Assembly: GCA_000004695.1 (NCBI GenBank)
Contig: CM000150.2
Location: forward strand, 4,859,597-4,923,596
DNA length: 64,000 bases
Direction of reading: 5' to 3'
Origin: Dictyostelium discoideum
Taxonomy: Eukaryota
Shown: positions 7,354 through 64,000 of the stretch, in pieces
How positions within the stretch are numbered: the first letter of the stretch is position 1
Layout: the number at the start of each line of letters is the position of its first letter
Made by a program: the position numbers and the translations under genes
The notes under the pieces: model-generated
Told to the model about the DNA's origin: nothing
The model's input: only the letters and a program-made list of their open reading frames with translations
The model's database searches: none

Positions 7354-12972
<5,619 letters not shown>

Positions 12973-13496
12973 TAAAAATATTAAAAAATGAAAAAAATTA
13001 TTATTAATTAATATAATAATAAAAAATAAAATAATATTTAGTTTTTATTACTTTAATATTCAAAACTAAAAAATGAATAAATAAAAATTCTTCTTTTTAA
13101 TTTTTTTAACTAATTTATTCAAAATTTTTTTAGTTTTCCAAAATATATTTTCCTCTTTGGCAATATCTATTCATATCTTTTTTTTACAGATAAAAAACTT
13201 TTTTTTTCTAATATCTAATAAATTTAGTTATATTTTTTTTTTTTTTTTTAAGAATTGAAGTTTCCCTCTTTGAAATTTTTTTTTTTTTCTTTATAGGAAA
13301 ATAAATTTTAAAAGGAAGGAAAAAATTGATTTTTAATTTTTTTTTTACAGAAATAAATGTGGAATAATCACATGTTTTTATTTAAAATAAGTAAATTGTT
13401 TGTTTTTAAATATTTGAATTTGAAACTTTAAAGTAATTAGATTTTTTTTCTTTTTTTTTTTTTTATTTTTAATACAATATACACAAGAATAATTTA

Positions 13497-13537
<41 letters not shown>

Positions 13538-13540
13538 AAA

Positions 13541-15239
13541 TTAATTTAGAGATAAGAATTTGACTCGGATAAATTGATTTCCTTGAATTTTTTGTCCATC
13601 AAGATTTTGTTGAGCTAAAATTGCATTTTCTGCATTATTAAAAGATATGAAACATTTTGTTTTGTTACTATTTGGATTTATATTTATCTATTTTATAAAA
13701 TGATAATAATTAGTAACCAATTTGAAAGAAAAAAAAAAAAAAAAAAAAAAAAGGTAAATTCCAAATAAAACACTTACATTTATACTTTTTAAATCTCCAT
13801 ATTTTGAAAAAATCTGGATTAAATTTGAATATTCTAAACTTCCTTTAAATGTGCAAACCAAAATTGAAACTGAATTATTATTTATAGTTTTAGTATATTT
13901 TGGTGAGGATGGTGGTGATTGTTGTTGCGGTTGTTGTGGTTGTTGAGGTTGGTATTGTTGTGCGTATACAATTGGTTGTTGTGGTTGTGGAATATGATGA
14001 TGATGATGATAATAATATGATGTTGCTGTTGGATATACGTAATAATTTTGATCAGTTGGTTGCCATGAATAACTTTGTTGTGGGGAAGTGGAATGTAATT
14101 CCCCATTTGTTGAGTAAACACCATTTGAATAATGATCATAATAATTATTTGAGTATGAATTTGAATTATATTCCTAATTTTAAAAAAAAAAAAAAAAAAA
14201 AAAATTAATATTAAAATTAAAATTAATAGATAATCTATTTAAACTAAGAGAATATATTAAATATTTACTTGTGATGCATAATAACCTTGATATGGCTCAC
14301 CTTGATAAACATATGAATATTGTGGTGGTGGAGGAATTGATGGTAATGGTGGTTGTGGAATTGATTGTGGTGGTTGTGGAATTGATATTGGTTGTATTGA
14401 TTGTTGCTGCTGTTGTTGTAGTTGTTGAGATGATTGATTATTATTATATTTTTGTGGTTGTGGAGATGATGGACGTTGAGGTTGATTTGGAGAAGATGAA
14501 CGATTTGGAATATTTGTTAAAGAAGAAATTGAGTTAGTTGTGGGACTTGGTGTTAAAGAAGATGTTGATGATATAGATGAATTTGATAATGATAAATAAG
14601 GAATTTGAATTGATTGTTTTTTACCATTAGGTGCATACTTAACTATTTTTTTTTAAAGAAAATATATACATATATACGTACATATTAATATTTGTTTTTT
14701 TTTTTAAGGAATATAAAATAAAATAATATCTTACCAACTAAAGGAGTTTCACCTAAAATTAAAGAACCAGACATTGATTGTAAAGCATTTGTTGAATAAT
14801 GAATATTTGAGAATTTAATAACGCCGGCTCTCTTACTTTTTCCACTACTGGCATCAATTAAAACTTGAGCCTCAATAACTTCACCAAATTGAGAGAATGT
14901 TGAGTTTAAAATTGCATCAGTAATTGTTGGTGATAATACTCTAACATAAAGAGTATTTGATGGATCTCTTTGTTGTTCAGTTTGGGATGGTGAAGTAGTT
15001 GCACCACCATTTGAATCTGGTACACAACAACTAATACCACCATTTCCATTGTTACCTACAAATGGAGACACTGGTGGTGAATTTGATGGTTTCGATAATT
15101 TACATAAAAGTGTCTTATATCCAACTTGATATCTATTCATATTTTTAATTGCTTCACAAGCATTTTCTGGATTTAAAAATCTTACAAATCTATTTAAAAT
15201 ATATTATAATTAATATTTTGGATTTTTTTTTTTTTTTTT

Positions 15240-15781: not shown

Positions 15782-16695
15782 CTTATAAAAAAAAATAAAA
15801 TTAATTATAATAATACAAAATGGTTTTTTTATTTTTGTTTTGGTGATGTGTTGTGAAAATGAAAGTGAAAATAATTTTTTTTTTTTTGTTTTTCAAAAAA
15901 GAAAAATAAAGTAAATGTGATTATAATCACAAAAAAAAAAAAAATAAAAATAAAAAAAAAAATAAAAAAAAAAAATTAAAATAATAATAGTTTGATTGGC
16001 GAATGAAAAATATTTTAAAAAATCTAAAATTCTGTGCAAAGTGTATTTTTATTATTTTGATTATTTTGAAATGATTGAAAATTTTTAATTGGTTTTATTT
16101 ATTCGATTGGCAAAAAAAAAAAATAAAAAAAAAAATATAAAAAAAAATAAAAAAATAAAAAATAAAAAAAATAGAAAAAAATAATGGTTATTGGTTTGGA
16201 TATGGACTTATATGAATTAAAAATCTGACAGACGATCACCCTTTTTTTTCCAACCAATCAAATGACCAATTAACCATAATCAAAAGAAAAATATCTTAAA
16301 ACCGACAAAGACATTCGACAAAAAAAAAAATATGAAAAATAAAAAATAAAAAAAATAAAGTAAAAAAAAAAAAAAACTGCAAAAAATCCAAAAAAACGAT
16401 ACTTGCAAAACAAAAAAAAAAAAAATAAAATAAAATGTAATGACCGTTATGGGAGAGAAAAGGTATTTTTTTTATGGTGCACAGAAATATTATTGTTCGT
16501 TTCTAAACAGATTTAAAAAAAACCAAAATTTACCCTAACACTTAATTAATTAATTAATTAATTAATTAAATTATTTTATAGATTTCTGATATATTTGGAA
16601 TATGGTTTTGAAATGATTATTATAATTGATTTAATAAAAAATGTAAATGGTTTTTTCTAAACAATTTTTTACTTTTTTTATTTTTTTTTCAATTT

Positions 16696-16753
<58 letters not shown>

Positions 16754-49911: not shown

Positions 49912-49914
<3 letters not shown>

Positions 49915-50367
49915 AAACATAGCAAAAATCAAATAGTTTATATAACATTTTTTATTATAATACTTATTGTTGTTAAACCAATAGAATCAGTAGAATGGAA
50001 TGATTGTAGTGATCCAAATGATTCATTTAAAATTGAAAAATTAGAATTTTCACCAGAACAACCAATTGCAGGACAGGATTTAATAATTTCAATATCAGGA
50101 TATTTAAATAAAGAAATTACAAATGGCGAAGCATATTTATCAATTACATTTGATAGAATACCAATTATAAAATTAAAAGGTAATTTATGTAATGGTATGG
50201 GTGTTACTTGTCCAATTCAACAAGGTAATTATTCAACAACAACTATTAATCAAGAAATACCTGAAAATGCTCCACAAGGTTATTACTATGTTAATTTTGT
50301 ATTATATGATCAAGATGATTTGCAAATCACTTGTATTGATGTCCAAATGAATATTACACAATCATAA
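49912..50367 (+). CDS. Secreted ML-domain (MD-2-related lipid-recognition, NPC2-like) protein, 151 aa
   Basis: Signal peptide MKHSKNQIVYITFFIIILIVVKPIES, then a fold of about 125 aa with spaced Cys pairs (WNDCSD...GNLCNGMGVTCP...ITCIDV) typical of the ML/NPC2 family. Confidence 0.65.
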
Positions 50368-55530: not shown

Positions 55531-56246
55531 TAGTTTCTTAATTATTTTAAATTGAATTTAAGAAATTAAATAGTGTGATTTTGTAAAATATGTTTTTTAT
55601 ATATATATATTTTTTTTCCCTATACAAAACTATATAAAATAAAACTCTGTTATTTTTTTTATATTATTTTAAATTCCATATAAACAATGTTATATGTCCC
55701 ATGCCAAAATTACCATATTAATTTCAGCAGCCATATTAATTTTGGCATGGGACTTAGGTCTGCCAAAATTACCTTATTAATTTCAGCAGCCATATTAATT
55801 TCAGCATGTACATAGCTGCCAAAATTAATATGGTAATTTTGGCATAGAAAAAAAAAAAGTCAAAGTCATTTAATTAATAATCATCTCAAATATAAACAAA
55901 ATTTTAGTACTAAAATTAATATTATTATTATTTTTATTTTAATAATTATAATAATAAAAAAAAAAAAAAAAATTTTCATATTATTTTATTTATATCTTTT
56001 ATTTATTTTTATCTTTTTATTTTTATTATTAATTTTATAATTTATTTTCATTTCTTTTTTTTTTAGTTGATATATATTTTTTTATTATTCATTTATTTCT
56101 AAGGCTAACAAAAAAAAAAAATTAAAAATAAAAAAAAAAAATAAAATAAAAAAAAAAAAAAAAAAATTAAAATAATTTTTTTTTTTTAATTTTTTTTTTT
56201 TAATTATCTACTCTTCTACTTACTCTTTTGTTACTAACAGATGAAG

Positions 56247-56449
56247 TGTTGTAGGGAATTTTCCATAAAATTTCACTACAGTAGCGTAGTGAATTTTATT
56301 ATTTAATTTCACTACAGTAGCGTAGTGAAAAAAAAAAATCACTGACCTTAAATTTTTTTTTTTTTCAAAAAACAAATAAAGTTTATTAAATTGAAATTTT
56401 ATTTTTTGTTTTAATTATTATTTTATTTATTTTTATTATAATTATTGTT

Positions 56450-56482
<33 letters not shown>

Positions 56483-59400
56483 CAATTTTTTTTTTTTAAA
56501 TTTTTTTCAATTTTTATTTGTTTATTAAATTGTAATTTTATTTTTTGTTTTAATTATTATTTTATTTATTATTATTGTTAATTTTTTTTTTTTTTCAATT
56601 TTTTTTTTTTTAATTTATTTTTATTAATTTATTTTTATTAACTCCCTGAGTTGTTCAATTGCTTGATTTACCATATCACTGTAAACACTGCACACAATTG
56701 AATTTTTTCTAGCTTTGTTACCTCTGGTGCATTTGATGTTTTTGCATTTTCCTTTGTATACAAAAAAGTCCAAATATAATTCGTTTTCTATTACAGTTTT
56801 TACACAATGTTGGTGAAATTGTTTTGATTTTAATTCTAATGCTTCTAACATCATATTTGAATTTTTAACGATTAAAGCATCACCACTATTTACATATAGT
56901 ACTTTGGCTGCTTTTTCGAGGAATTTAGTCAAATTTTCCTCTGAATCTAACTATTCTTCATTGCCATATTCAATGGCTAAATTTCTTAAGAGTTTTATCG
57001 AATCTATTAATTCTTCGATCATTCTTTTTTTTTGAAATTTTTTTTTATTTTGTTTTTTCAATTTTTTTTTTTTATTTTGTTTTTTCAATTTTTTTTAAGT
57101 TTTATTTTTTTTTATTTTTTTTTATTTTTTTTAACAAATGTAATTTTTTTTTATTTTTTTCAATTTTTTTTTTTTTTAATTTTTAATTTTTTTTTTTTTT
57201 TTTAATTTTTTGTGTTGATTTGTGTTTTTTTTGTTTTTTTGATTTGGCCACTTGTTTTTATTTTCTAATTTCCCCATACCCCCTTCTATTAATTGCAACC
57301 AAATCAAGTTCTAATTTTTGTGTCCTTGTTGACTTTGTTTTTGCAACTTTTTTTGAAGGTATCACATTAACGATTTTTCCTATTGATGGTGATTTGGAAG
57401 GTGATTTAAATGGTGATTTAAATGGTGAATTGGAAGGTGATTTAAATGGTGAATTGGAAGGTGAAATGGATGGTGATTTGGAAGGTAATTTAAATGGTGA
57501 TTTGGAAGGTGATTTAAATGGTGATTTAAATGGTGAATTGGAAGGTGAAATGGATGTTGATTTGAGAGGTGATTTGGATGTTGATTTGAGAGGTGATTTG
57601 GATGGTTTAGAATGTGATTTTAAAGGAGGTTTATTAACAATTGGTATCTTATGAGGACGGCCTCTGAGACGTTTAACAGTTGTTACTATACCACTACCAG
57701 ATTGTGGTATAGTATATGATGGTATTATTTGCACTTGAGGTATTGGTGGTACTATTTCTTTTAAATTCATATCCTTTCTCAAACAATTCATTAAATTTGG
57801 CGCTGTTGGATTATTATTTAAAAATGGGAGTATTTCTTCTTGTTCCATTTCATTATTGAGTTTGTGTTGAAATGGATTATCGTTAATGATAGGTGGAATA
57901 TTTGATGGATTGTTAAGAGCATCTTCCAAAACCCTAAATGGATCATTTTGTGTTACCAATTGATGCAAGTTGAAATTGGATAAATCCTTACCAAGATTTT
58001 TAATAAACTGAACCAGAAATTCAATAACTTTCCCATCATTATTTAAATAAAGACCAGAAGTAAAAGAATCAATATCTTTTTGTATGTTTGGCGATGTTCT
58101 AAAAATATCAACTGTTGATTGTTTATAAAGAACCAACTTGTTACCTCCTACAAAACCAGAGTATAAACCTTTTTTTTGAAGGCTATTGATTCCATCTTCC
58201 AAAAATTCAAGTTTATAAAGTTGTTTAGTGTCTTCCTGTATTACCTTATGAATTTTACACAAAATCAATATTTTCTATTAGAATTAAATATAAAATTTGT
58301 TAATTATTACTGTTTCATATATTATTAATCTTTATGTTTTAATTACTTACATTATTTTTTTTAATTTCTAGAAAGAGTACAGTATCACCAACTTTCAATC
58401 CCTTTGGTGGTTTTGAATTCCATTGATTTTGGTAACTTGTGAGATTTTCAAGAATAATAGCTGTTATTTCTTCTTTTGAAACATCTGAAACACCAATTGA
58501 TTGAGAGTCTTGTTCTGATTGCACATTAATAAACAAAGGTACAATACCAACAGCTTGAGATGGTGTCATTTTAATTGTTCTTGTTTTTGTATTATTGTAA
58601 TCATACAAAGCTTGTTTTAATAGTTCAGAAAGAGACCTAGAAGTACCATCAAGAAAACTAAAATTTATTTATAAATGATTAATTAATAAACATATCGATA
58701 ATTTATATTGTTCAAAATATCATACTCTTGTTGTTTTAATTTTGAGATCCTCTCCTTGATAGTTCGATTCAATCTTTCTACCATACCTTGAGTTGTTGGT
58801 GTACGAGGAGCTCCATGTGCTGACTTGGAGCCTGGAAAAAGTTTTAGGAATTCTTTTTGGACTTTGTTTTTAAATTCACGTCCATTATCGCAGTGCCATA
58901 CTTTCACAGAGTTTTAATATAAAAGTTACAAAACATCATATAAAAAATGATTGATACCAAACCTTTTATTCTATTTCGTTGGCAAATGTCACACGTATCT
59001 ACTGCATCAGATACAAAAGAATACAATCCCATATTATAATATTTAGTCTTGTAGTTCCCATAGGTTGCATCTCTTCCTATATGACCTTTATGCATTTCTT
59101 CCCAGAGTGATACCATTCTATAATCATTAATTACTTCTAAACACACTTCTTTTGATATATTTCTATCTCCGCCACAATTCATGACTTTTTTTTCAATTCT
59201 AAATAATTTTTCTTTTCTGTTTCTGTTTTTTATTGGTCAGAATTTAAAAAATGATTGTGTTATGGTAAGGAAAAATATTTACTCATCATGTAAAAATTTA
59301 TAATTTTTATGTTTAGTATTTTCAAAATTATTATCTTCAATAAATTTTAAATAATTTATTCTGTTTCATTTTGGGGAAATGAAAATAAAAAAAAAAAAAA

Positions 59401-59692
59401 AAAAAAAAAAAGTTTTGTTGGGGAAAAAAAAAAAAAATTTTGGCGCAAAAAAAAAAAAAAAAAATAAAATAAAAAAAAAAAAAAATAAAATAAAAAAAAA
59501 AAAATAAAAAAACTTAAATAGAACTAATAATCAAATAAAAGATAATAATTTAATAAACTTTATTTGTTTTTTGAAAAAAAAAAAAATTTAGGGTCAGTGA
59601 TTTTTTTTTTTCACTACGCTACTGTAGTGAAATTAAATAATAAAATTCACTACGCTACTGTAGTGAAATTTTATTGAAAATTCCCTACAACA
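56247..59692 (-). mobile_element. Tdd-4/Ginger2-type DNA transposon (retroviral-integrase-like transposase, TIR-bounded), 3446 bp, with a 5-bp TSD TGAAG
   Basis: TIRs of 100 bp or more run TGTTGTAGGGAATTTTCCATAAAATTTCACTACAGTAGCGTAGTGA..., present at 56247.. and inverted at ..59692, each with an internal direct duplication of AATTTCACTACAGTAGCGTAGTGA. TGAAG lies at 56242..56246 and at 59693..59697. Size, TIRs, introns and the integrase gene match what is known of Dictyostelium Tdd-4 (3.8 kb, 5-bp TSD, integrase-like ORF). Confidence 0.7.
57258..59182 (-). CDS. Integrase-like transposase of the Tdd-4-like element (HHCC zinc finger + DDE core + C-terminal tail with SPxK repeats); interrupted by short introns
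   Basis: Zn finger H..GH.G...C..C (HKGHIGRDATYG...CDICQRNR). Core WHCDNGREFKN...HGAPRTPTTQGMVERLNRTIKE. C-terminal region ...GLKVGDTVLFLE. Tail (SPLKSTSK/SPFKSPSK)n. Junctions fit GT...AG introns (for example, donor GTATGA and acceptor TTTTAG between 58683 and 58608). Confidence 0.65.
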
Positions 59693-59697
59693 TGAAG

Positions 59698-60317
59698 TTT
59701 CGTTTGAAAATCTTTTGGTGAAAAAATCAGCATCAGATTGTAATTGATTAGCTCTTTTTTTACCCGTTTTGTTTTTGTTTGATTGAGTTGTGATTCCACC
59801 ATTATTGGAAGTTGTTGCAGCTTCATGTGTTGATCTAACTTCGGTGGTAGAGTGCTCGATTGCTTTTCCAACTAGGTCATCTGTTGATTTTCTTTTGGTT
59901 ATTTCGATATCCCTTTGCAATTTATTTTTACTTGAGAGTTTGGTGGCCTCTATTCTAGAAGTAGGCTCAGTATTGTAATAAGCCTTTATAATAGCAGAAT
60001 GATTATCTGCTTTATAATGATTACTGATGTGCTGTTGACACTGGTTTTGATTAATCATATGAGAGACACCATCTTCATCTTTGTTAAGCCTAACCTTCTC
60101 TATAATCTTCACTAAGTCTTTTGGGTACCAATTTTTTCTTTTTATCTTTATCAATATAAAACACTTCTTTAATAGTTGCCGTACCATATTCTACATTCTC
60201 AACAACATACTGTTTATCCAAAATGTTTTTCCAATAGCTTATATTTTGTCCACTCAATTTGGTATTATGAAATTTATAATCTATTTTAAATTTTACATCT
60301 TCGTCATATTTTTCCAA
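59698..60317 (-). pseudogene. Frameshifted ORFs of the host TIR element (unrecognised protein)
   Basis: ORFs 60090..60317 and 59698..60187 overlap with a frameshift. The downstream one reads through into the Tdd-4-like TIR, meaning the gene was disrupted by the insertion. Confidence 0.35.
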
Positions 60318-61119
60318 GAGTTTTTTTAATTTATTTTTATTATTTTTTCAATTTCTGTTGCAGAAAGTTGATTATTTAATTTATTGTCTTTACTGAAGAC
60401 CATTTTTTGGAACGAAAACTTTAAAAAAATAAAAAAATAAAAAAAAAAATACTTTTTTTTTTTAATTTTTTTTTTTATATTTTTTTTTTTATATTTTTTT
60501 TTTTTAAATTTTTTTTTTTAATTTTTTTTTTTTATTTTATTTTTTTAAAGTTTCGAACAATTATATATAAAAAAAAAGTAAAAGATATCCCTTCGGTTAA
60601 TTAAATAATAATAATAATAATAATAATAATATAATAATAATAATAATAATAATACTTATTTCGAAATGTTTAAACAATCATACAGTTTAAAATTAAATAA
60701 ATTGTTTTAAACCACCACTTTTTTTGAACACATGAAAATAAATAAGATATAAAAATAATAAGATAAAAAAAGATTTTTTTTTTTTTTTTTTTTTTATTTT
60801 ATAATTATTCTTGTCGTCAGTATTGTTACTATAATTAATCCCATGAGTTTTTTTTATTATTATTTTTAATTCTTTTATATTTGAGATGATTATTATTAAT
60901 TAAATGACTTTGAGTTTTTTTTTTTATATTTCTATGCCCAAAATTACCATATTAATTTCAGCAGCCATATTAATTTCAGCCTAAAATAGTTGGTCTGTGC
61001 ATGCCAAAATTAATATGGCTGCTGAAATTAATATGGTAATTCTAGCAGACATAAGTCCCATGCCAAAATTACCATATTAATTCCAGCAGCCATATTAATT
61101 TTGGCATGGGACAGTTATA

Positions 61120-61930
61120 CAGACCATTTTAAATAATTTCCATTTTTGTAAGTTCTAAAAACTTCCATTTTTGGAAATTTCCTTTTTAGAAATATCCTTA
61201 TAAGATAATATCCTTTTTAGAAATTTCCTTATATGGTAATTTCCTTTTTTAGAATTTTTTTTTCATTAAACTATTTTTTATGCGTCGATCAAACAAAGTT
61301 TGGGATTTTTTTTTTTTATAAAATTTTTTTTCTAAGTCAATTTTTTTTATAAAAATTTTATTTTTCTTCACAAAAACAACTTGGTTTATATAAAAAAAAT
61401 GTTTAAAGTGTTTTGAAACATTTTTTGTTTAAAAAAATAAAAATTTAAAAAAATTTCCTTTTTAAGAAAAAAAAAAAAAAAACTTGAAAGTTCGATTTCT
61501 TCATAGATCTCGTAAAGGCAAGCATTATTTTTTAAAAATTATTTTTTTTGAAAATACCGTATTTGGAGAGATCTCAGGAATGAGAACTTTCACTCGCGTT
61601 CTAAATCTATATTTCCGTAAGGAAATATTACTATATATGGTAATTTCTATAAAATGAAATTTCCTTTTTTGGAAATTTCCTTTTAAAGTAATATCCTTTT
61701 TAGGAAATTACTAAAAATAGATGTCCCTCTGTCGATATGTCTCCGAAAAATCTTAAAAATATCTCCGATACATCTCCAAAAAATCTCTGAAAAAATCTTG
61801 GAATTTCTCTATTTTGTGTACCCCCTACCTCCCTAGATCCCAGGTTGAAACCCAGGGAATGTAACCTTACACAAAACCCCAGGGATATAACCTTACACAA
61901 AACCCCAGGGATATAACCTTACACAATATA
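61120..61930. repeat. Tandem-repeat block, possibly LTR-like: (TTTCCTTTTTAGAAAT)-type units, then three copies of CCCCAGGGATATAACCTTACACAAAA
   Basis: Repeats seen directly. It lies immediately upstream of ORF 62058, which could be a gag-like ORF of a retroelement. Confidence 0.4.
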
Positions 61931-62057
61931 ATTTTAATTTTTTTTAATAAAATTTATTTTTTTTTTAATTTTTTTTCAAATATATTTTTTATTTTTTATT
62001 ATTTTTTATTTTTTTTTTTCATTATTATTTTTTTTTTTTAAATTCGTAACTATAAAA

Positions 62058-62750
62058 ATGTCGCATAATAAAAGATTAATTAAACAAACTTCTAGAACAA
62101 CACCAGATTTTAGTTCTATTAGAAAAAAACAATTCATTAAAAAGATTGTATATGTTAAAAAACAAGAAGATGTATCTTCATCATTAAAAGATGTATCCTT
62201 ATCTTCATCACCAACAATTAATAATGATCTTATTACTAATTTTGATCAAATTGCAGTGTTAATTGAAGATATTTCTATTTCTAATCACCAATTTGAAAGT
62301 AGTGACAGTGATTGTAGCAGTGGTGACGGTTTCAATGGTGGTATCTTGAAAAATAGTGACAATGAATTTGAAGGTGCACTTGACCATCAACATAATTTTT
62401 CTTATAGAAAAGAGGAAAAAAATGAATCATCAAAGTCAACAAAATTGGTTACTGAATCAAGTATTGAAATTGATAGTTCAAATCCAATTTCTACAAAGTT
62501 TAATAGAAGTTATCCAACAATCAATTCATTAAATGATGTTAATTTTAACAAAGAATACTTGATTCGTAAAGATTCTAAAGTCAAATCAATTATTTATTCT
62601 TCTGATGATGAAAAAATTGGTAGTGGTAGTGGTAGTGGTAGTGGTAGTGGTAGTGGTAGTGGTAGTGGTAGTGGTAGTGGTAGTGGTAGTGGTAGTGGTA
62701 GTGGTAGTGGTAGAATCCATCTTCTTTGCCCATCTCTCCCATATTTCTGA
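62058..62750 (+). CDS. ORF of 230 aa, S/D-rich, ending in a (GS)n tract; possibly a retroelement gag-like or spurious ORF
   Basis: Clean ATG, no introns, higher complexity than the surrounding sequence. No recognisable domain. Confidence 0.25.
   Translation: MSHNKRLIKQTSRTTPDFSSIRKKQFIKKIVYVKKQEDVSSSLKDVSLSSSPTINNDLITNFDQIAVLIEDISISNHQFESSDSDCSSGDGFNGGILKNSDNEFEGALDHQHNFSYRKEEKNESSKSTKLVTESSIEIDSSNPISTKFNRSYPTINSLNDVNFNKEYLIRKDSKVKSIIYSSDDEKIGSGSGSGSGSGSGSGSGSGSGSGSGSGSGSGRIHLLCPSLPYF
62620..62710. repeat. (GGTAGT)n hexanucleotide microsatellite, about 15 units
   Basis: Seen directly; encodes (GS)n on the plus strand and (TT)n on the minus strand. Confidence 0.9.
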
Positions 62751-62830
62751 AAGGAATCTTGGATCTCTATCGGAGACGATTGTTCTTGGATAACCATGGA
62801 GTCTGAACACATGATTCAACAATAATTGAG
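62712..62830 (-). pseudogene. Fragment of a Ty3/gypsy-type (LTR retroelement) integrase catalytic core
   Basis: The minus-strand reading LLNHVFRLHGYPRTIVSDRDPRFLSEIWERW matches the conserved h.HG.P..IvSDRD..Fts.FW block around the catalytic Glu of gypsy/Ty3 integrases. The upstream sequence is not integrase-like, so only about 35 aa remain. Confidence 0.5.
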
Positions 62831-63305
62831 CAGTATGTTGGGCATCATACGGCCATTTGTCAATAGTAGGTCGGCGGTGGTGGTCATCAGCTGATGACAG
62901 AGGACCGTTTGCTCATAGTGGGCTTACTGGGTGACTTAGGCTACTATGTTGTAATTCTCTCGATTTGTCACTGTCATTCGGCTAGCATTTAGAGGTTAAC
63001 GTAATCAATATACATTGGTCACAAAAAACTTTTTAATGGTGGAAGGTAAATTTAATGTCACTAATAATCGGTCCGTCAAATTGGTTAGTTAGAGGGCATT
63101 AAGCGTGCTGAAAGCTATTAGAAAGGATCAATTGTGTTGATTCGACCTATCTCTAATATGTTAGTCGGGTATGTCCGGCAGTTTAGCGGCAGGGGGAACG
63201 GTGTACGCGCTGGGTTTCTGGCCACCGTTGCAGTAGCAGGTAAGATCTGCGTAATACTAGTACTTGTCCGAAAGATTATTCTAATTCCGCCTCACCTTTG
63301 TAAGA

Positions 63306-63635
63306 TTACCCGCTGAACTTAAGCATATCAGTAAGCGGAGGAAAAGAAACTAACTAGGATTCCGTCAGTAACGGCGAGTGAAGACGGAATAGCCCAAGGT
63401 TCAAACCTGGATCTCTTCGAGGTTAGGTGATGTGACCTATGGACTGATGGAGCCCGCTGTTGTGACTGCTAATTCCGTTTGGAATTTCGAGTCGTAGAAG
63501 GTGATAACCCTGTTCGCAGTATCACAACAGTTGGACTTTGCCATTAGCTCCACGAGTAGGAATGTCTGAAATTGCATTCTGAATGGGTGATAAGATTCAT
63601 CCAAGGCTAAATATATGTTAGGAGATCGATAGCAT

Positions 63636-63666
<31 letters not shown>

Positions 63667-63900
63667 TTTGAAAAAAGGTTTAAAAGTATTTGACACCGTT
63701 TATGTGGAAGCGTTTACTTGGACCCCGATTAATGACGTCGGTTTAGCTCTAATTCTTAGGTGGCCAAAGTAGAGTGTTACGTGCTGATCAAAAGGGAACG
63801 GACATTTGATTCATTGGTTATCGACGAGGAAGGGACTCTAAATCGGCCAGTTACTAACGGGTGAGATCTGATGTCTATAAAATGGAGGATGAGGCTTATC
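63306..63900 (+). rRNA. 5' end of large-subunit (26S/28S-type) rRNA gene, partial (runs into the N gap)
   Basis: TTACCCGCTGAACTTAAGCATATCAGTAAGCGGAGGAAAAGAAACTAAC is the universal eukaryotic LSU 5' terminus. Downstream ...AGTACCGTGAGGGAAAGGTGAAAAGAAC is the conserved D1-region motif. Confidence 0.9.
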
Positions 63901-64000
63901 NNNNNNNNNNNNNNNNNNNNNNNNNNNNNNNNNNNNNNNNNNNNNNNNNNNNNNNNNNNNNNNNNNNNNNNNNNNNNNNNNNNNNNNNNNNNNNNNNNNN
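63901..64000. other. Assembly gap (100 N)
   Basis: Run of N characters. Confidence 1.

Follow-up and report, generated by a model that had tools for sequence, protein, structure and literature searches.

Does the reference genome of Dictyostelium discoideum AX4 record a true chromosome end where it runs out of unique sequence into ribosomal DNA (rDNA), and if so, how are the two joined? The question is raised by a stretch of 64,000 nucleotides (contig CM000150.2, positions 4,859,597 to 4,923,596; hereafter the window), at whose distal end a 26S ribosomal RNA (rRNA) gene begins and then breaks off in Ns; the junction zone was read at 61500-64000. The locus is very probably the junction of the gene-rich, non-centromeric end of chromosome 1 with an rDNA cap. 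The transition is a patchwork, in which a hexanucleotide microsatellite is followed by a fragment of a retrotransposon, a short piece of the repeat array downstream of the 26S gene, and finally rDNA that begins inside internal transcribed spacer 2 (ITS2) and continues into 26S.

The phenomenon itself, an rDNA cap at a chromosome end, is already known and was published in 2005 and 2009. As far as the summary of Eichinger et al. 2005 in PMC2665215 goes, all D. discoideum chromosome ends carry rDNA-palindrome sequence. The published arrangement runs from chromosome through junction and palindrome to the palindrome end, and the junctions often join palindrome and transposon sequence (PMC2665215). 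At its ends the rDNA palindrome carries A(G)n repeats with a 3' overhang, and one proposed route of end maintenance is recombination with the extrachromosomal rDNA (PMC6759168). A first-pass annotation of the window had stated that rDNA-derived sequence caps D. discoideum chromosome ends, and had offered a chromosome-end junction and a scaffold join as the two explanations of the locus. The present analysis adds the point at which the rDNA begins in ITS2, identifies two fillers (82 bp, and 130 bp of Skipper type) and shows microhomology at three joins. Base-level junction anatomy is not given in PMC2665215 or PMC6759168, and the 2005 paper may already record it.

Composition of the junction

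The window was compared with several sequences. The first, L001, is the corresponding locus on contig JBTAPE010000039.1 (3.2 Mb) of assembly GCA_054883475.1; it contains no N and was read to 10 kb past the last chromosomal open reading frame (ORF), which is ~9.4 kb past the 26S 5' end. This assembly comes from a set of de novo Nanopore and Illumina genomes, the lab strain AX2-214 among them (PMC12745789), and given its near-identity to AX4 its strain is most likely AX2. The second, L006, is the first 9.5 kb of CM142509.1, a 6.4-Mb chromosome record of the same assembly. Canonical rDNA is represented by contig L002, retrieved through a spurious 60-aa ORF across the ITS2/26S border, in which 5.8S rRNA occupies 287-444 and large subunit (LSU) rRNA begins at ~1029, with an ITS2 of 584 bp between them. 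Seven further rDNA contigs from Logan represent other sequencing runs; three of these (L007-L009) reach upstream of the ITS2 breakpoint and, with L002, make four canonical contigs that span 62920. The features of the junction are collected in Table 1.

Table 1. Features of the junction zone, in window coordinates
Feature	Positions	Strand	Basis
Last chromosomal ORF, 230 aa	62058..62750	+	ORF list; identical product called on JBTAPE010000039.1
(TGGTAG)16 microsatellite	62618..62713		Tandem Repeats Finder: period 6, 16.0 copies, 100% matches
Junction J1, microsatellite/retroelement; 3-nt microhomology TAG	62711..62713		Comparison of window, continued repeat and L006
Internal integrase-core fragment of a Skipper-type (chromodomain Ty3/gypsy) long terminal repeat (LTR) retrotransposon	62711..62846	-	Encodes DAQHTAQLLLNHVFRLHGYPRTIVSDRDPRFLSEIWERWAKKMDS
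Junction J2, retroelement/26S-downstream repeat; 6-nt microhomology GGCATC	62841..62846		Side-by-side donor comparison
82-bp piece of GC-rich repeat array downstream of 26S	62841..62922	+	81/82 to L001 15380-15461
Junction J3, 26S-downstream repeat/ITS2; 3-nt microhomology GGG	62920..62922		Side-by-side donor comparison
3' 386 bp of ITS2 (of 584)	62920..63305	+	Collinear with L002 from L002 643
5' ~600 nt of 26S (LSU) rRNA gene	63287..63900	+	Rfam RF02543, model positions 1-611, 299 bits, E 3.6e-79
Run of 100 N, assembly edge inside multi-copy rDNA	63901..64000		Sole N run in window

On the rDNA side, the LSU match exceeds the Rfam gathering score of 50, its 3' end being cut by the N gap, and the conserved LSU start ACCCGCUGAA stands at about 63306, where the first-pass annotation had placed the 5' terminus. 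That annotation had also seen no 5.8S gene upstream, and none is found: Rfam returns no 5.8S match in 62000-63900 even at E<=10, and a search of all 64 kb for the 5.8S core motif of the species, as read from the canonical rDNA contig, likewise gave nothing with up to three mismatches allowed. Where it had described ~480 bp of moderate-GC sequence ahead of the LSU terminus, such sequence is present and proves composite, consisting of the 82-bp piece from downstream of 26S and the 386 bp of ITS2. The precise junction point, which it had held to be undeterminable, can be placed, since collinearity with rDNA starts at 62920 within ITS2 and is preceded by the 82-bp rDNA piece. Aligned to the canonical contigs, the window is collinear from 62920 and not from upstream of 62700, and no 5.8S gene is included; L007-L009 likewise match the window from 62920 only. 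The rDNA block begins without the first 198 bp of ITS2, 5.8S, ITS1, 17S and the upstream promoter region. The possibility that the whole ~470 bp upstream of 26S is ITS2 was rejected, as canonical ITS2 diverges from the window upstream of 62920.

From 62920 to 63900 the window agrees with canonical rDNA at 977/981 positions. All four differences (63796, 63834, 63875 and 63886) are found in the window only, when it is set against L001 and eight canonical contigs, and all lie within 105 bp of the gap; they are probably low-quality read-tail errors in the reference. A diverged chromosomal copy was rejected as their source, the chromosome 1 copy in the other assembly being free of them. In L001 the rDNA is identical to L002 at 4128/4128 positions. 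As the first-pass annotation had observed, the sequence stops in an N gap, which simply marks how far the reference extends into the multi-copy rDNA.

Like the main rDNA block, the 82-bp piece is oriented centre to end. It derives from one unit of an array of ~ten degenerate ~45-nt repeats, found 0.1-0.75 kb past the 26S 3' end (L001 15083-15703). The array has the core CGGCCRTTTGYYCATAGTRGG and a (TGGC)n run, and its GC content is 52-58% in an AT-rich spacer; its position suggests an RNA polymerase I termination region.

Upstream of this piece lies the retroelement fragment. Its Pfam rve match is weak (E 0.0014) and a word-indexed protein search with the peptide gave no match; a full HMMER (phmmer) scan returned 1548 matches at E<=1e-3, headed by D. 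discoideum DDB_G0294358 (96% identity, E 1.7e-21). RVT_1, RNase H, Integrase_H2C2 and rve domains are found in its relatives, with Chromo in addition in the closest of them. Two LTR retrotransposon families have been described in D. discoideum, and a chromodomain is known in Skipper only (PMC5633606). The peptide is therefore homologous to a Skipper-type integrase core, and a DNA copy of the element at L006 4351-4486 (minus strand) matches the fragment at 133/136 positions.

The first-pass annotation had recognized the fragment and its minus strand correctly, with an extent (62712..62830) that falls short of the one found here; it had also reported the microsatellite, which precedes the fragment rather than following it. 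Its phrase "transposon debris" is an overstatement for one 130-bp internal Skipper-type fragment accompanied by no LTR and no other piece. No LTR, target-site duplication or other sequence of the element occurs in the 64-kb window, and in place of an element body the fragment is flanked by microsatellite and rDNA. Because nothing else in the window resembles the element, the fragment appears to be a 130-136-bp internal piece of a Skipper-type integrase gene and not an insertion.

All three joins show short identities between the sequences that meet there. At J2, the retroelement goes on ...GGCATCTATTG where the rDNA repeat reads ...AGCTGGCATCATACGG; at J3, the repeat goes on ...GTGGGTCGG where ITS2 reads ...GGGGGGGCTTAC. 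The chance that random joins would jointly show at least 3, at least 6 and at least 3 nt of microhomology is ~3e-6 at equal base frequencies and ~1e-4 at a per-base match probability of 0.35.

The microhomologies could nevertheless be coincidental: an ordinary Skipper insertion may once have stood at the chromosome end, and unrelated deletions on either side would then have left no more than the present fragment. Palindrome and transposon frequently meet in the published junctions (PMC2665215), and Skipper copies are for the most part fragmented (PMC5633606). However, only 130 bp of mid-integrase survive here, with no LTR, target-site duplication or other element sequence in 64 kb and no transfer RNA gene to hint at a resident insertion, and both edges of the fragment share microhomology with their neighbors. 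Moreover, Skipper-1 is reported as fragments in centromeric clusters, at the opposite end of the chromosome (PMC5633606). An ordinary insertion is thus unlikely, though it is the alternative that survives best, and the fragment is treated below as a filler between two joins.

The rDNA block as a probable chromosome-end cap

Comparison with the second assembly provides evidence that the join is real. L001 and the window share 99.7% identity over 59692-63900, and there is no difference between them over 62560-63795, the number of microsatellite repeats included. Past the junction, L001 continues through a complete 26S gene (11230-14976, 2729 bits) and a 5S gene (16610-16728); the rDNA block runs for at least 9.8 kb in cap orientation, and JBTAPE010000039.1 ends 21 kb past the 26S 5' end. 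GCA_054883475.1 can be regarded as independent of the reference because it lacks a 3.4-kb transposon present there and differs at many homopolymers. An identical junction in an independent assembly makes an assembly chimera very unlikely, and the junction is taken to be real. The long-read support across the junction that the first-pass annotation had called for is thus available at contig level, in a contig built from Nanopore and Illumina data.

Three features expected of an rDNA cap are found at this locus. First, the block is collinear with the rDNA element. Second, the passage from unique and transposon sequence is abrupt and falls at an internal point of the rDNA. Third, genes, ITS2, 26S, 5S and contig end follow one another in this order on the plus strand, where the centre-to-end direction from 26S to 5S is taken from published maps and not from a reference alignment. 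With an identical join in an independent contig and an order that fits the published arrangement, the chromosome-end junction offered by the first-pass annotation is supported.

The identity of the chromosome end follows from the genes of the window. The ORF at 49912-50367, ~12 kb upstream of the junction, is exactly DDB_G0270454 of D. discoideum AX4, and the AX4 record bearing this gene we take, from the gene number, to be chromosome 1. The window is gene-dense and its 64 kb contain no transfer RNA genes; it therefore belongs to the non-centromeric end region of that chromosome.

Such a block could also be an interstitial rDNA insertion or a buried former cap with more chromosome beyond it, like the relic described within the chromosome 3 centromere. 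Relics of this kind exist (PMC2665215), and one is seen here: over 1.3 kb, L006 7265-8607 matches the canonical 26S 3' end and downstream repeats at 94.6% identity. This relic lies amid retroelement genes at the start of the chromosome record and points into the chromosome, opposite to the orientation of a cap; a former cap may have been buried or inverted there. In addition, the AX2-like contig was read only to ~9.4 kb past the 26S 5' end. Against an interstitial block at the chromosome 1 junction stands its 100% identity to canonical rDNA over 4.1 kb, compared with the ~5% divergence of the relic. The block also extends for at least 9.8 kb in cap orientation with 26S and 5S intact, the contig runs out 21 kb beyond the 26S start, and the reference has only a gap there. 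Taken together, these observations render an interstitial block improbable.

Still less probable is an assembly artefact, in which unique chromosome 1 sequence was falsely joined to abundant palindrome reads or merely abuts a scaffold edge. The setting invites such an error: rDNA is present at ~100 copies per nucleus (PMC6759168), and 595 bp into 26S the reference gives way to an N gap, after four errors in its last 105 bp. However, the same three junctions recur base for base in the independent, N-free de novo contig, which speaks against the scaffold join proposed by the first-pass annotation, and a chimera would not reproduce a three-part patchwork with microhomology at its joins. A chromosomal rRNA gene copy, whether decayed or an rDNA unit that still functions or serves as "master", can be dismissed almost entirely: the 26S and 5S genes of the other assembly are complete and identical to canonical rDNA, but 17S, ITS1, 5.8S, the first 198 bp of ITS2 and the promoter region are all absent, the upstream neighbors are an antisense retroelement fragment and a protein-type ORF, and normal pre-rRNA cannot yield 26S without 5.8S and 17S. 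Lacking 17S, 5.8S and part of ITS2 upstream of 26S, the block as assembled cannot be a working rRNA locus.

Several points weigh against reading the locus as a cap acquired through microhomology, or narrow that reading. The second assembly is of nearly the same genotype (99.7%, with mostly homopolymer indels); at the level of assembled sequence it confirms the join for the NC4 lab lineage, and its near-identity implies nothing about the age of the join. The perfect identity of cap and canonical rDNA could result in part from polishing dominated by palindrome reads. For collinearity beyond 26S, as for the terminal position, the evidence is where the 5S gene lies, where the contig ends, and the literature; the window itself stops in Ns. 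Neither an A(G)n run nor a proposed telomere motif was found in the loci read, among them L001 over the 10 kb past the last ORF. Finally, the lengths of the microhomologies depend on the true donors, from which the fillers' donors used here may depart, differing from the window as they do at 3/136 and 1/82 positions, and the mechanism of formation is inferred from a single junction.

A screen of Logan contigs containing the 26S 5' region for other junctions yielded canonical rDNA throughout. A 25-nt deviation in one of them (L011) was considered as another junction and rejected, as it is an Illumina adapter. An antisense 26S ORF, used as a handle for other rDNA-bearing contigs, gave no match in the word-indexed protein search.

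Sequence on the chromosomal side

The (TGGTAG)16 microsatellite, whose copy number is the same in L001 and the window, is read as the final stretch of native chromosome 1 sequence. It is translated within the last chromosomal ORF, whose C-terminus is a (Gly-Ser)n run encoded by the repeat; the frame continues for 12 codons into the antisense retroelement fragment, which supplies the stop codon. No homologue was found among 5.8 billion proteins by the word-indexed search, and the exact sequence is absent from the protein collection, where no annotated AX4 protein corresponds to it. The ORF has a coding-like composition and a typical AT-rich upstream region. It may be a truncated gene or a chance ORF.

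Synteny with two wild D. discoideum isolates from the set of genomes to which GCA_054883475.1 belongs (GCA_054859385.1 and GCA_054859355.1) extends at 92-97% identity only up to ~50,600, just past DDB_G0270454. Beyond this point both isolates carry unrelated genes, and no rRNA is present in their flanks past the loss of synteny, ~12 kb before the junction. Given the different sequence of the isolates past ~50,600, the terminal ~12 kb of AX4 chromosome 1, up to the cap, is lineage-specific subtelomeric sequence.

This subtelomeric segment holds repeats of several kinds. At 61851-61926, ~130 bp upstream of the promoter-like poly-T region of the orphan ORF, a locally C-rich patch holds 2.9 copies of the 26-bp tandem repeat CCCAGGGATATAACCTTACACAAAAC (96% matches). 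Rfam identifies a mir-7131 precursor at 61010-61098 on both strands (96 and 91 bits). The hairpin is palindromic and belongs to a 62-nt repeat family with four copies, arranged as two pairs ~5 kb apart (55692-55812 and 60926-61112); because of this membership, the mir-7131 locus looks repeat- or transposon-derived.

The 3.4-kb element that is missing from the other assembly lies at 56248-59692. It has terminal inverted repeats of ~269 nt, with ends GTTGTAGGG...CCCTACAAC, is flanked by a 7-bp duplication, ATGAAGT, and contains an inner ORF on the minus strand (57258-58268) with SPFKSPSK repeats. In the AX2-like assembly a clean empty site is found at L001 7644-7650. The element looks like a DNA-transposon insertion that is polymorphic among NC4-derived lab strains, and because of this polymorphism it may be recently active.

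Proposed formation of the cap and comparable systems

At this locus, the chromosome end would have been broken or eroded inside the microsatellite, and then healed by microhomology-primed copying or joining that captured extrachromosomal rDNA. Two histories would account equally well for the observed order. In the first, a single template-switching, break-induced-replication event would have passed from a Skipper copy to the 26S-downstream repeats, on to ITS2, and from there to the palindrome end. In the second, erosion and re-capping would have occurred in succession: an earlier cap, joined in the 26S-downstream repeats, would have been worn down to 82 bp and the end then re-capped at ITS2. 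The second history gains slight support from the orientation of the 82-bp piece, which is that of a cap. In either case, the rDNA block would act as a distal palindrome arm that supplies the A(G)n telomere, and the cap would be kept up by the telomerase-like TERTHP, by recombination with the ~100 extrachromosomal copies, or by both.

It is a tentative proposal, and one less likely than not, that the three-junction patchwork is a fossil of cap acquisition, in which priming by 3-6 nt and template switching or re-capping continued until a palindrome arm had been copied out to the telomere. If the other eleven ends of AX4/AX2 and the ends of wild strains share this signature, capping would be a recurrent, microhomology-driven healing and not homologous recombination. 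The last 12 kb of chromosome 1, specific to the strain, would then be a by-product of such healing. As this end is readable at base resolution, the mechanism of acquisition becomes testable through a comparison of every chromosome end in the new long-read assemblies. Users of the genome should note that the chromosome 1 reference includes no more than 595 bp of 26S, that the last ~100 bp before the gap appear to contain errors, and that the 26S gene at this end should not be taken for a functional rRNA locus.

In D. discoideum, as in few other eukaryotes, an extrachromosomal rDNA element lends the chromosomes their ends. The closest comparison is with the rDNA-palindrome caps already described in this species (PMC2665215, PMC6759168), which share the order of elements, a join to unique or transposon sequence and an arbitrary internal rDNA breakpoint; the chromosome 1 junction is an instance of them and does not differ in kind. 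HAATI-rDNA survivors of Schizosaccharomyces pombe are similar in that rDNA at chromosome ends takes on or carries end protection and is kept by rDNA recombination (PMC6759168). The fission yeast system, however, is an escape after telomerase loss that uses tandem chromosomal rDNA, whereas in Dictyostelium the cap is the normal state and is donated by an extrachromosomal palindrome that itself bears an A(G)n telomere.

Among repair pathways, microhomology-mediated break-induced replication, or template-switch repair, and alternative end joining with templated filler DNA give rise to patchworks of short pieces. The junction resembles products of microhomology-mediated break-induced replication in that pieces of 76-136 bp are joined by 3-6 nt and the last template is copied for many kilobases; separate events of erosion and re-capping would leave the same sequence. 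The retrotransposon telomeres of Drosophila (HeT-A, TART and TAHRE) offer a further likeness, as their non-canonical ends are built from a repeated element and a retroelement piece also lies at the junction described here. In Dictyostelium, however, the 130-bp retroelement piece has no end-extension role, and the chromosome end is derived from rDNA and not from transposition.

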